From Octopus vulgaris (Eukaryota): DNA of 64,000 nt. The stretch lies in the NCBI GenBank assembly GCA_951406725.2, contig OX597814.1, positions 73,532,001 to 73,596,000 of the forward strand. The letters run 5' to 3'. Positions 18,283 through 64,000 of this stretch are shown one piece after another. The notes beneath the pieces are model-generated. The model did not search any database. It was given only the letters and a program-made list of their open reading frames with translations, and had not been told where the DNA came from. The stretch's first letter is position 1. Each line of letters begins with the position of its first letter. Position numbers and translations under genes: made by a program.

Positions 18283-18894
18283 TATTAGTTATCGCCATAC
18301 TAATATGGCATTCTTATAAAAATAAGAATAAAGCTGACCGCTTATTAGCTCCATGAGGCCATCGCCTTAAGTTAGCTATTTGATACACAAACTGTATCCA
18401 TATAACCTTTGAACAAGGGAGGTCAGTCGCTCCACACTACTTGGCCGGCAGCTACAGACGCGTTTCGGGGTATTGCCCCTTTTCAATGCAGCGTAGCCAA
18501 ACCAGTAGGTGTCGCTTCTGACAATCTCTGTTCAAAGGTTTTATTTACCTAGCTTCGGTGGAATACATCCACTTGTTTTCAATAATAGAAATATTAAAAT
18601 TACTAAGTCTCTCTAAAAGAGAACAACGGCAGCGTTCCCGGAAAATATTAGTTATCGCCATACTAATATGGCATTCTTATAAAAATAAGAATAAAGCTGA
18701 CCGCTTATTATATGGATACAGTTTGTGTATCAAATAGCTAACTTAAGGCGATGGCCTCATGGAGCTAATAAGCGGTCAGCTTTATTCTTATTTTTATAAG
18801 AATGCCATATTAGTATGGCGATAACTAATATTTTCCGGGAACGCTGCCGTTGTTCTCTTTTAGAGAGACTTAGTAATTTTAATATTTCTATTAT
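18283..18894 (-). mobile_element. Non-coding hammerhead mini-element (363-bp monomer + partial tandem + inverted segment) in (TA)n
   Basis: 18283-18347 = 18646-18710 (period 363); 18711-18894 is an inverted copy; (TA)n on both sides. Confidence 0.85.
18451..18492 (-). ncRNA. Minimal type-I hammerhead ribozyme, U3-A8 core variant
   Basis: Minus strand GCTGCA-TTGAAAA-GGGG caata CCCC-GAAA-CGCG-TC-TGTAGC: 6-bp helix I, 4-bp helix II, palindromic helix III ACGCGT, GUC site. Confidence 0.85.
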
Positions 18895-19264
18895 ATATAT
18901 ATATATATATATATATATATATATATATATATATATACATATATATATGTGTGGGTGTGTCTGTTGCAGTACCTCAATTGATTCACATGTAAATTCCACA
19001 ATGTACTTTTTGTCCTCAAGTTACTTCACTCAAAATCTTAGAAAATACAAAATTATTTTATTATAATTATTTTATCATAATTATTTTATCATTACATCTC
19101 TCCATTTTCTAATTTAATAATATTTGATATTTGCATAATACATTGATTGAAGAATTATATCTTCAAAATATAATATGTTAAACCAGTGCATCTTGGATAA
19201 AACTATCCATGTAAGAGGTTTATATATCCGCATAATGACTGAATATATATCTATCTATCTATCA

Positions 19265-19411
19265 ATCAATAACATAGAAATTAAAATATTATCCACACAT
19301 AGATCAGATGCAACAATTAGACAAATTACAGAAGCTACACACATAATAGAAAATAAACCTAGCCTGAATAGAAAACTAGAATGGAGCACTAACACACACC
19401 ACAACATATGA
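19265..19411 (+). mobile_element. Penelope-like GIY-YIG endonuclease C-terminal remnant
   Basis: IEIKILSTH...RQITEATHIIENKPSLNRKLEW fits the R..xEA..I....P.LN end of PLE GIY-YIG. Confidence 0.7.
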
Positions 19412-19856
19412 TAATAGAGGATCCTGAAAACATAATAAATACACAGATAAATAAACTAATAGAAATAAATAACTATATATATATATTTTTTTTCGATTCG
19501 ATTTATTATTGTTATTACTAGTATTGTTGTTATACATACATACATACATACATACATACATACATACATACATACATACATACATACAAGCATATGTAAT
19601 GATAATAATAAGTGGATGTAAACACATGAACAAAATAAGAATAAACATAAACAAAAACAACAAAAGCAAAATACAAATTACATAAACATATATCAACAGA
19701 AGATACAAATATTACAGGCATCCCCCCACTCACACACACTAAATAAATATAAACGCACATAGAGATATAAGCATGCGCAAATGAAGTCATACAATAGAAA
19801 TAGAAAATGGCTGACGGTTAGTAAGGAGAGACACAAATAAGTAAGAAGAAAACAAA

Positions 19857-19901
19857 GGACCACTGATGCGGTCACAGGAGTGTGACGAAAGAACTCTGGC
19901 C
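19857..19901 (+). ncRNA. Degenerate minimal hammerhead downstream of the GIY-YIG remnant
   Basis: GGACCA-CTGATGC-G-GTCACA ggag TGTGAC-GAAA-GAAC-TC-TGGCC. Confidence 0.65.
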
Positions 19902-19992
19902 GAAATAAGATTAAGATTAATGTAAAAAATAAATAACACTGAAGCAAAATAACACATATATATATATACATATATATATATACACACACACA

Positions 19993-20460
19993 TGGGCATC
20001 CTTGTTAATGCCTCATTTATACCTGCCTTTATGGCTTATAGGTTAAATGAGGTATGACTGTCCTCACTGCCGAAACAGCTGTCAGTTTTGATTTATTTGC
20101 ATATTATATTTGAAATTTTTTACTTATATCTCTTTATCTTTTTACTTTTACTATTACTGTATATCTCATTTCATTTTATATATTGCCTTTACTCATATGT
20201 AATGGTGTATTAAAGTATGGATTGAGTATCATCGGATAGTTGATGTTTTACTGATTTAAGTATGTTTCTCCATTCTCTAATTTTGTAGTATTAATTTACG
20301 GTAATATTATTACCTTTACCCATTTAATACAATAGATGAACTGATTGCTTGACAATTTTTAACATCTATGTATTATTTTTGTTGGGTACCTATCTAGCAG
20401 TATATTGGATATATATTATCCCATGGTGGGTTGAATTTTCAACCCCTATCTCATTTTATA
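19993..20460 (+). mobile_element. 5'-truncated copy of long-helix-II hammerhead element (related to 57016-57570)
   Basis: ttgttaatgcctcatttatacctgc...ggttaaatga...gccGAAACAGCTGTCagtt matches the reverse complement of 57205-57295. Confidence 0.65.
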
Positions 20461-60984: not shown

Positions 60985-61030
60985 AAAACTATTACTCAAA
61001 GTTTCACGTTCCCGTTTGTCGGACAGTTTT
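60985..61030 (-). ncRNA. Minimal hammerhead, copy 1 (CCGACAA core)
   Basis: AAAACTGT-CCGACAA-ACG ggaa CGT-GAAA-CTTTGAG-TA-ATAGTTTT. Confidence 0.7.
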
Positions 61031-61678
61031 GTTTAAAATGGAACAAAAATAGAGTTATAAGCAAGCATATTCAATTAGTTTAATGGATACACATTTGAAA
61101 ATGGTTTTGTTTCATTCGTTCTTTCAACTAACGGTTTTTACAATGACCGGTTGCATGCGATGAACAAAATTCGGTATAAAATCATCTTATTATAAATCGA
61201 AAGAAACCTTAAATCAAAAATAGCTTCTAAAGGACAGAGTCAAAATACCCTAGGTAAATAATTTGTAAAATATTAATTTATACATTAAAAGTTATATCCG
61301 TTTAAAAAAATTTCACGTTGGATTACATATACATTCAGCACTATATATCCTCTGAAGAAGCCAAGGGGCACATCCATTATCCAAGTCTTGTCTGTTCATC
61401 CCTGCATAACACTGAAGAGATGGAGATAACCTGGAAGATTTCGTTTCCACGTTGCAGAAAAAGCCGTATGCACCTGCATACCAATTTAGTCTTTCACCAA
61501 TCTGCTTATTTGCTCAATTATACATTTGTTTTTACATGCTTATATGTATTCACACCCTTGTTTGCAGTTACCAGTTTTCTCCACTCGCTAATCTGTACTA
61601 GTCATACATGTGCGTGTATTCATCCAATACATTATATATATATATATACTTTATTTAAAAGCAGCAGAAATATAATAA

Positions 61679-61722
61679 AAGCTGTTACTCTGAGTTTCAC
61701 ATTCCCGTTCGTCGGACACTTT
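61679..61722 (-). ncRNA. Minimal hammerhead, copy 2 (CCGACGA core)
   Basis: AAGTGT-CCGACGA-ACG ggaa TGT-GAAA-CTCAGAG-TA-ACAGCTT. Confidence 0.75.
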
Positions 61723-62519
61723 TGTTAAAATAGAACAGAAATAACGATATGATCAAAACTAGTTAAAGGATGATACACCATTAAATATGGATTTGTTTCA
61801 TTGGTCCTTTCAAATAACGGTCTTAAGCATGCGATAAACAAAATAAACAAAATAAATGAATTCAATATAAATTCATCATATTATAAAAAATCGAGGAAAA
61901 AACTTAAATCGAAGGTCGAGACGAAGTATAATGTAAACAAGGTCACATGTGTATAATAGAATATAACGCAACAGTTACAATATTTAAGTAAAAATTTACA
62001 TACAAGTAGAAAAAACCCAAAGACAACTGAACAAAGAAAAAGCATCAATCATAGACAGAACCGGTCGGTGTATTCAAGATAGTTACCTTACTCGAAAACT
62101 AGCCCGGGGCAGGGGAGACAACCAGAAAAAATAGGAGCAAAAACGAATATATGAAGGAGAAAATTATTAGAAATTGACAAGTGAAAAGACGCAGATACAC
62201 AACACGCGAGGATATACAGTCACACGCATACACAACACACACATGCATACATGCACATACAAGGGTTTAAGTGTAAGAGAAGATTCAATTAAAATAAAGG
62301 AGTACGTATTCATATAAGACTATATATATATACATACATATACTTGAATTCATACACATACACATATACATATGCATACACACATTCATATACATGTATA
62401 TACACATATAGACATAAAACATAAAATGTATTCATGCACAAACACAAAAACATACTAGTAAACACATGCATACAAACCTACATACGAATATATATATATA
62501 TATATATATATATATATAT

Positions 62520-63232
62520 ATAACATAAGGGACTAAAGCCATCTGAATATGGCTAGGGACAGGGCAGGGTGGTGGGGGTGTTACTGTTGCATTTAGCCCC
62601 AGGCGAACATCGACGTCACCAGAAAGGCTAGACACCGTCACGGTGTCCTTATCCTGCAAAGGGAGGTAATTCCCCGATGAAGCGGAAACCACACACGGAC
62701 CATGGTTTCAAGGTGTATTGCCTATCGTCGGCGTGTGGTAGGCTTCCGCTTCCTCGACGAATTCTCACTCTGCAGGATATTCATATATAGATTTTCAAGC
62801 AAAATACATTTGCTGATTTCGAAAATCTGTTCGAAAGCAATAATAATTCTCTTTTAGAGAATTATTATTGCTTTCGAACAGATTTTCGAAATCAGCAAAT
62901 GTATTTTGCTTGAAAATCTATATATGAATATCCTGCAGAGTGAGAATTCGTCGAGGAAGCGGAAGCCTACCACACGCCGACGATAGGCAATACACCTTGA
63001 AACCATGGTCCGTGTGTGGTTTCCGCTTCATCGGGGAATTACCTCCCTTTGCAGGATAAGGACACCGTGACGGTGTCTAGCCTTTCTGGTGACGTCGATG
63101 TTCGCCTGGGGCTAAATGCAACAGTAACACCCCCACCACCCTGCCCTGTCCCTAGCCATATTCAGATGGCTTTAGTCCCTTATGTTATCGAGCAGTTACT
63201 GTCTATATCTCTTTTAGAGAATTATTATTGCT
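62520..63232 (+). mobile_element. Non-coding hammerhead mini-element: 669-bp palindrome, 360-bp monomer + 25-bp tandem tail, in (TA)n
   Basis: Arms 62520-62852 / 62856-63188, 3-nt loop, no mismatch seen; tctcttttagagaattattattgct at 62848 and 63208. Confidence 0.88.
62969..63020 (+). ncRNA. Minimal hammerhead (CCGACGA core); mirror copy at 62688-62739 minus
   Basis: ACCACACG-CCGACGA-T AGG caataca CCT T-GAAA-CCATGG-TC-CGTGTGTGGT; palindromic helix III ACCATGGT. Confidence 0.8.
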
Positions 63233-63266
63233 ATATATATATATATATATATATATATATATATAT

Positions 63267-64000
63267 AATTCATAAATAAGGGCAAACGAAAAAATTTTCA
63301 ATGCCAAATATGCCGAAAAATTGTACATATTATCCATTAACCATTAATTTTTTTACAATCCGCACGCTACTCGAAAAAAGGTCGCGACAGAAATTTCTTT
63401 AAAATTCCATTATTACCATATCGGACCGATTTCAGGGTTAGCTTATAACAGCCCTCCCTTCGTCAGTGACACATGTGGCAAAAGAAATAAATGAGATACT
63501 TACTCATACCCATGGAAGAAGCAAATACTAAGTCATGAGCACAATTAAGTACCCCAGATACATCCAAAATAGAAATACTCCAGCCCATTCGGGACACGTG
63601 CGATTTGAACTGATGCTCTCACAGAGTGAAAGAGTCCGGAAGTGAACGCCTATATTTTTTCGATAAAAATTCTTTTCCAAAAAAAATTTTATCAATGGCC
63701 AGCATATTAAAAAAATACCTTTAAAGGTTAAATTCATAAACAATTCATAAATAAGGGCAAACGAAAAAATTTTCAATGCCAAATATGCCGAAAAATTGGA
63801 CATATTGTCCATTAACCATTAATAGTATCTCATTTATTTCTTTTGCCACATGTATCACTGACGAAGGGAGGGCTGTTATAAGCTAGCCATGAAATCGGTC
63901 CGATATGGTAATAATGGAATTTTTTTAGAAATTTCTGTCGACCTTTTTTCGAGTAGCATGCAGATTGTGAAAAAATTAACGGTTAATGGACAATATGTCC
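63267..64000 (-). mobile_element. Non-coding hammerhead mini-element (475-bp monomer + partial tandem + inverted segment, runs off window)
   Basis: 63267-63348 repeats at 63742-63823; 63824-64000 is the inverted copy of ~63320-63500. Confidence 0.85.
63417..63472 (-). ncRNA. Hammerhead with canonical CUGACGA core; inverted copy at 63852-63906 plus
   Basis: GTGTCA-CTGACGA-AGGG agggctgttataagctaa CCCT-GAAA-TCGG-TC-CGATAT. Confidence 0.8.

Follow-up and report, generated by a model that had tools for sequence, protein, structure and literature searches.

Hammerhead-bearing mini-elements of Octopus vulgaris as probable non-autonomous Penelope-like elements with two arms and two fixed ends

How do short non-coding repeats that carry a hammerhead ribozyme motif come to be copied into an animal genome, and which enzyme copies them? 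The question is raised by a window of 64,000 nt of Octopus vulgaris OX597814.1 (the whole stretch of DNA analysed here), in which an initial annotation had noticed five such elements, here labelled A, B, C, D and E. Their five families are probably non-autonomous Penelope-like elements (PLEs), of the kind known as non-long terminal repeat (non-LTR) retrozymes, copied in trans by the reverse transcriptase (RT)-endonuclease of coding PLEs. The annotation had proposed copies longer than one unit, made with borrowed PLE machinery. The first proposal is borne out by arms of up to about 10 monomers, and the second is well supported by the ends, tail, (TA)n target and arms that recur in three coding PLE families.

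What does a single insertion look like? The family searches covered the whole assembly (2.8 Gb), with first-look candidates counted and the best 40 scored per family. When monomers are mapped on the fetched loci, each insertion is a pair of head-to-head sense arms that face outward and are 5'-truncated at variable inner points. The 3' ends lie at two fixed sites per family (A 363/66, C 341/25, D 475/~105, B ~62/176, E ~245/346), and the stretch between the two sites is the counterpart of the PLE 'tail' (66 nt in A, 44 in C, about 100 in D, 114 in B and 101 in E). Circularly permuted copy start points, which the annotation had envisaged, are rejected because the ends are fixed. Its arrangement of an inverted segment, a monomer and a partial copy is one outcome of the more general two-armed structure. 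The inverted segment does lie 5' of the ribozyme sense strand, but trivially so for any head-to-head pair, and in window elements A and D it is the short arm that carries the tail.

The pairing of the two ends is close to strict. From a sample of 261 loci, 86 were one-armed, 25 were two-armed with one unclassable end and five were cut off, leaving 145 classed two-armed insertions, part of them classed by eye. A tail end is paired with a no-tail end in 143 of these; two have tail and tail, and none has two no-tail ends. One C sample was chosen by its tail pattern, and short no-tail pairs could be missed there. The samples free of that bias, A picked by its ribozyme and C picked upstream of the ends, gave 25/25 and 15/15 of the classed insertions.

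Four families target (TA)n, and in A and C roughly nine of every ten classed ends lie in it. The target is duplicated over about 12 bp; such duplications are unmeasurable inside pure (TA)n, and outside it 12-15 bp were found at no fewer than six insertions (L041, L199, L224, L252, L266 and L274), while many other inspected insertions had no duplication, or TA only. The overlap at the arm junctions is mostly 0-4 nt; it is 2-4 nt in 33/54 insertions of A, and more spread in C (0-3 nt in 27/50). Among 96 classed insertions, a count that left out eight unclear and six rearranged loci, the no-tail arm is contained in the tail arm in 45 and the reverse is true in 22. In the other 29, window element A among them, neither arm contains the other. 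The inner ends accumulate near the 3' base of a long predicted rod that bears the ribozyme at its tip; those within 5 nt of the predicted cut number 6/108 in A (3.3 expected) and 2/100 in C (3.1 expected).

Is the same anatomy found in elements that encode an enzyme? A genome-wide GIY-YIG search gave 6136 candidates, of which the best 150 were scored. Three young coding PLE families have intact RT and GIY-YIG frames, of 781, 775 and 811 amino acids (aa), in many near-identical copies. The 781-aa frame (P0001) contains RVT_1 and GIY-YIG domains and a linker zinc finger, a feature that defines the Neptune and Nematis PLEs (PMC8557442); all 76 scored matches of the 775-aa frame are at 100% identity. 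The ends of the coding families fall at two sites and lie in (TA)n; the tails measure 45, 32 and 42 nt, and a tail end is paired with a no-tail end in 5/5 two-armed coding insertions (L177, L345/346, L361, L369 and L377). The ends of two of the three hold a hammerhead-like motif with a U3-A8 core, as in family A. Since two-site ends, a single tail, a (TA)n target and head-to-head arms recur in coding PLEs, the mini-elements are likely passengers of PLE machinery. In all three coding families (L176-L187, L360-L377) a frame of 450-495 aa lies upstream of the RT-endonuclease frame and overlaps it; the one such frame that was tested has no Pfam match over the cut-off and no usable Atlas match.

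The annotation had asked whether the monomers might be ends of coding PLEs, and in the samples they are not: they align to no coding-PLE ends in 94 fetched PLE loci (some overlapping), and PLE coding sequence is contiguous with 0/285 mini-element loci. These two results together argue for independent non-coding families. Five of the 285 loci have coding hits, read from place and orientation as neighbouring insertions (flanks inspected for two). A helper search through the end cassette common to A and C gave 20 loci, taken with 5-9 kb of flanking sequence; at none of them is the element joined to an open reading frame. Within the window, the RT frames are of the long interspersed nuclear element (LINE) type, as judged from their translations, and have no tblastn match to PLE proteins in a scan that left out a 140-aa frame near 61.5 kb.

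Self-comparison of the window recovered all five elements where the annotation had placed them (A 18286-18894, B 23024-23660, E 54846-55440, C 62520-63232, and D from 63268 to beyond the window end) and confirmed the monomer periods of 363 (A), 401 (B), 360 (C) and 475 bp (D). The 475-bp copy of D is about 20 bp short of the family monomer of about 496 bp, and E, whose family monomer measures 599 bp, is a doubly truncated copy. The parts of the five elements are as follows.

18236-18285, no strand: (TA)n at the no-tail end of element A.
18286-18710, minus strand: no-tail arm of A, one 363-bp monomer and 63 bp, with the 3' end at the left.
18451-18492, minus strand: type-I hammerhead motif of A, with a U3-A8 variant core and a palindromic stem III; predicted cut at 18457.
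18708-18894, plus strand: tail arm of A, 121 bp and a 66-bp tail (18829-18894), followed by (TA)n.
23011-23023, plus strand: 13-bp target duplication of element B, left copy; the right copy lies at 23654-23666.
23024-23184, minus strand: tail arm of B, with a tail of about 114 bp; an old family, here outside (TA)n.
23180-23660, plus strand: no-tail arm of B, a 401-bp monomer and about 80 bp.
23492-23543, plus strand: hammerhead motif of B, its core canonical in most family copies and decayed in the window copy.
54846-55187, minus strand: tail arm of element E, 346 bp of the 599-bp monomer, flanked by (TA)n.
55201-55440, plus strand: no-tail arm of E, starting within a long stem-II insert and holding the 3' half of the hammerhead only (55237-55258).
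62520-62860, minus strand: no-tail arm of element C, 341 bp, flanked by (TA)n; mirror hammerhead motif at 62688-62739.
62848-63232, plus strand: tail arm of C, 341 bp and a 44-bp tail (63189-63232).
62969-63020, plus strand: hammerhead motif of C, with a U4C core; predicted cut after 63010.
63232-63267, no strand: (TA)n serving as target for both C and D.
63268-63823, minus strand: no-tail arm of element D, a 475-bp monomer and 81 bp; canonical hammerhead at 63414-63471.
63824-64000, plus strand: tail arm of D, extending about 160 bp beyond the window end (locus L061); second hammerhead copy at 63853-63910.

As the annotation had observed, (TA)n touches four of the five elements; the exception is B, whose bordering 13-bp target duplication had gone unnoticed. 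The elements hold no credible open reading frame, the longest ATG-started frame being 66 aa across all monomers, each read as a circle. Reading frames that run endlessly round a circle of 363 or 360 nt are rejected, every frame being closed. A short interspersed nuclear element derived from transfer RNA (tRNA) is also rejected: no tRNA gene was found in the window, where decayed tRNA-like heads could escape detection, and there are two fixed internal ends instead.

How could such insertions be made? A helper enzyme, probably a dimer, would nick both strands of the target about 12 bp apart. On the sense RNA, synthesis of complementary DNA (cDNA) would start from one nick at the no-tail site and from the other nick at the tail site. 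Extension of each cDNA would continue up to a stalling point, in many cases the base of the long RNA rod, and the two stalled ends would then anneal and be repaired. The template would be a circle, a monomer cut by the ribozyme and ligated, that is copied round more than once. Priming from both nicks, with one site for each, accounts for the arms, the tail rule, the target duplication and the overlap at the junctions. In the twin priming of LINE-1, too, both nicks prime cDNA and an inverted arm is joined by microhomology; there, the second primer is set at a chance internal site and the end is poly(A), whereas both start sites are fixed here. A PLE protein has been found in vitro to nick and extend both strands of AT-rich DNA and to initiate at two internal sites of the RNA, between which the tail lies, and it is predicted to form a dimer (PMC11167929).

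Part of the evidence weighs against this reading, or against its circular template. The missing alignment between monomers and the ends of the sampled coding PLEs is one such point, mobilisation in trans being argued from shared anatomy. Family B, which is not TA-targeted, probably used another helper. In vitro, the start site did not differ between the strands, in contrast to the one site per arm of the insertions here, and ribozyme cleavage was dispensable for PLE insertion (PMC11167929). Family C has spread despite its U4C core, a change that considerably lowers activity in vitro and that a viroid tolerates (PMC3088659). One of nine predicted Xenopus retrozymes cleaved (10.64898/2026.07.22.740005). 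Among 33 insertion-private variants, 16 occur in only some monomers of their array, and the near-perfect palindromes in 10/44 C insertions can also be explained by fold-back of the cDNA.

Is the template a circle at all? This is the least certain step; the ligated monomer circle is inferred here with a confidence that stops a little short of even, and an uncut tandem transcript fits nearly as well. It is quite possible that the same non-autonomous PLEs are inserted by twin priming on an uncut linear transcript, with or without template switching and with no circle, the ribozyme being slow or serving another step. Such a transcript would suit the lack of clear inner-end enrichment at the predicted cut, as would a ligated circle; it would also suit the U4C core of the very young family C and the patchy variants, and the main substrate in vitro was unprocessed RNA (PMC11167929). 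However, a copy of a linear array can be no longer than the array itself, and the youngest families contain arms of 9-10 monomers (L196, L197 and L410), as against only about two in the top matches of the older families B, D and E. The other 17 of the 33 private variants are present in all pieces that cover them, seven of them across both arms. The monomers of multimeric arms usually have a common haplotype; at L410, 12 monomers over both arms carry one 12-variant haplotype, which differs from that of the array L420 (8 full matches). Linear cleaved monomers are rejected as the template, since inner ends are not clearly over-represented at the predicted cut.

Could the inverted arm arise from fold-back, a single cDNA priming itself (or an antisense template being used), with the tail as the point of endonuclease resolution? 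Proposals of this kind exist for rotifer PLEs (PMC3846280) and for the tail (PMC8557442); fold-back would likewise yield one tail per insertion, and it would produce palindromes such as those of C. It requires, however, that one arm be a sub-copy of the other, which fails in the 29 insertions noted above, and the 22 with the reverse containment would need fold-back in the opposite direction. Near-perfect palindromes make up just 2/52 A junctions, and those of C cluster at a self-complementary hairpin beside the rod base. The insertions in which neither arm contains the other favour priming from both nicks over fold-back, which is improbable as the source of the arms but may make some of the 10 C palindromes.

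Are the mini-elements ordinary truncated ends (pseudo-long terminal repeats, pLTRs) of coding PLEs outside the sample? Most PLE copies are 5'-truncated, the best 150 of the 6136 GIY-YIG candidates were scored, and Xenopus retrozymes match pLTRs (10.64898/2026.07.22.740005). Monomers joined head to tail without an intervening open reading frame, together with the separation from coding sequence at all 285 loci, make this very improbable. Perfect palindromes and tandem arrays are difficult to assemble, and a blockwise pattern of later duplication is seen in some arrays (L042), but long-read assembly artefacts or satellites expanded in place can hardly account for fixed asymmetric ends, target duplications, dispersal over many contigs, and one opposite-strand joint and head-to-tail joint that recur in contigs of public runs.

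Do the families retain a hammerhead? From comparison of their copies, the motifs are conserved. A descriptor scan of the window gave five type-I hits with a score of at least 9 (one in A, two in C and two in D), against none in seven of eight shuffled windows and one in the eighth. At family level the cores of B, D and E are canonical, that of A is U3-A8 and that of C is U4C; the annotation's one type-I motif per monomer holds, but not all are minimal in the sense it gave them, A and C being variants. Each core letter of B is present in 27-33 of 33 aligned copies. The core of E has a 60-nt insert in stem II, inside which the window copy begins. Position 7, a free position of the A core, varies across eight A-family monomers, and one copy has lost the core by deletion. 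In the same eight monomers, a weak set of related sequences, both-sided changes occur at 8/111 predicted pairs, including stem II, while stem III stays palindromic. Subfamilies of C show five core variants, all of which keep G5, A6 and A9. Each of the five monomers has a better predicted fold than its shuffled versions (z -2.7 to -7.9). Two look-alikes were rejected, one at 23581 as the ribozyme of B (CUGACGU, without stem II in most aligned copies) and one in the antisense of D at 63610 (core CUGAUGC or CUGAGGC in the copies shown, stem I absent). In Rfam, the hammerhead family was absent among the best 150 of 238 matches for the window, where only microsatellite or hairpin matches to microRNA models appeared, and among the 38 matches for 62530-64000.

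A splice-donor-like stretch lies inside the 60-nt ribozyme insert of family E (L133:1501-2099). An antisense 12-mer of the same family, which resembles a tRNA-Met primer-binding site, is exact in 10/25 loci.

How widespread are the families, and are they related? First-look candidates, which are not copy numbers, amount to 883 for A, 1747 for B, 969 for C, 3020 for D and 2441 for E. Identity among the best copies is 99-100% in A and C, about 95-98% in E, about 90% in D and about 80% in B. Exact-pattern searches of the genome found 730 matches to the A ribozyme, 541 and 2051 to two segments of C, and 2200 to the cassette pattern of motifs shared by A and C; the reversed controls found none. The annotation had seen no shared sequence between the elements, and this stands for nine of the ten family pairs under pairwise alignment. 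Families A and C, however, align in register over an end cassette that includes both end sites (z 4.5, score 35; best shuffle 34) and are, from this alignment, related to each other. At 63090-63190, in the 3' segment of C, the summed depth in contigs of public run X15 is about 100 times that of the ribozyme region; depth is not copy number, and the difference hints at a much larger repeat group that shares this segment.

Other repeats in the window touch on the same theme. Two copies of another repeat with a hammerhead-like motif lie on the minus strand at 60951-61218 and 61644-61913, and the core at 61715, CCGACGA, is the same U4C variant as in family C. A further repeat, with a hammerhead-like 3' half and a palindromic stem III, has copies at 19998-20287 and 57014-57297. 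With these two repeats, the families with a whole or half motif number seven, in place of the roughly eight that had been suggested. A short TA-flanked palindrome at 54440-54595 has ends that resemble the tail end of family D and is possibly a stump insertion; another short palindrome lies at 29978-30131.

Are the elements transcribed? No RNA entries were listed among the sequence-record holders that carry them. Pieces of A or C are present in assembled contigs of five public runs guessed to be RNA, and such contigs are blind to strand, ends and the distinction of circle from tandem. In family C (loci L031-L060, L196-L215 and L236-L275), variants shared between monomers are A>G in 16 cases and T>C in four on the sense strand (p 0.012), and singletons lean the opposite way, 4 versus 12 (Fisher p 0.002, shared versus singleton); the shared sites include subfamily markers and are polarised by majority. 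Family A shows no such bias (7 versus 6), and the neighbour bias at the C sites is weak (3' G at 7/16 versus 20/90 adenines). Within this sequence set, the pattern is suggestive of adenosine-to-inosine editing of the template in family C. A bolder scheme, unlikely as a whole, is that a PLE dimer copies ribozyme-made circles of 360-600 nt, each subunit being locked to its own start site and strand, with the fold being recognised and not homology to the helper, and that such edits are written into the arrays.

The remainder of the window holds a 540-aa open frame on the minus strand at 50232-51854, which matches rhodopsin-family G-protein-coupled receptors (PF00001, E 1e-45). Pieces of two reverse transcriptases of the LINE type lie at 55434-56594 and 57555-58586, the first cut at the (TA)n beside element E. 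An inverted pair of 244 bp with 89% identity (38275-38515 and 40246-40488, 1.7 kb apart) possibly marks the ends of a DNA transposon. The output of a generic repeat finder was dominated by microsatellites.

How do these elements compare with known systems? Non-LTR retrozymes have been defined, their circles shown and PLEs named as their likely drivers (PMC7229834), and retrozymes have been called non-autonomous PLE derivatives from co-occurrence and pLTR similarity (10.64898/2026.07.22.740005). Like these metazoan retrozymes, the octopus elements are low in G+C, form short tandem arrays of non-coding monomers that are a few hundred bp long and hold a single type-I hammerhead, co-occur with PLEs and are proposed to be mobilised by them; non-coding tandem monomers in the defining range of about 150-1000 bp were found here. 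The published retrozymes are described as head-to-tail repeats, whereas the present elements are two-armed with fixed ends, a tail and a target duplication; 'inverted' and 'target site' occur nowhere in the main text of PMC7229834. The Xenopus families match pLTRs, whereas the present monomers match no sampled helper. For coral, mussel and axolotl retrozymes circles have been shown; for the present elements, circles and cleavage are hypotheses.

The elements resemble endonuclease-bearing PLEs (PMC8557442, PMC3846280, PMC11167929) in several respects: both have copies in partial tandem, one arm that is inverted and truncated, a tail at one of the two ends, a short duplication of the AT-rich or (TA)n target, and a hammerhead upstream of the ends. 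They differ in having no open reading frame, units of 360-600 bp, arms that can both be multimers, and tails of 44-114 nt in place of 30-40 bp. The U3-A8 core is known from PLEs (PMC4209133); the same paper reports opposite-strand motif pairs 100-700 bp apart and a circle hypothesis. PMC8557442 describes inverted copies, tails that often stand at a single end, targets of (TA)n and the non-autonomous Chlamys elements. Chlamys such as MRC1 are likewise non-autonomous PLEs with multicopy head-to-tail insertions; they are found in green algae and, unlike the present elements, are generally similar at the 3' end to autonomous partners. In an octopus, 31 recently active Penelope-like families have been counted; ribozymes go unmentioned in the parts available, and the repeat library may include the present families (PMC13282606). 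A literature search that left most subscription papers and Repbase outside its range found no published count of end pairing and no description of retrozyme insertions with two arms.

What, then, do these insertions mean? The class is already known and the families are new. The added value is mechanistic: a near-strict rule of one site per arm, evidence that speaks against simple fold-back, and passengers that show no detectable homology to the active helpers. The link between retrozymes and PLEs has hitherto been drawn from co-occurrence and from pLTR similarity in frogs; here, an insertion footprint ties hammerhead repeats to PLE machinery. This footprint addresses two open questions, how animal retrozymes move and how the inverted, tailed insertions of PLEs originate. 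It is from hundreds of copies at 99-100% identity that the near-strict rule of one start site per arm, and the count against simple fold-back, could be drawn. Three intact candidate helpers and substrates of 360 nt make the mechanism testable by a published in vitro assay. In the genome itself, such elements seed long perfect hairpins.

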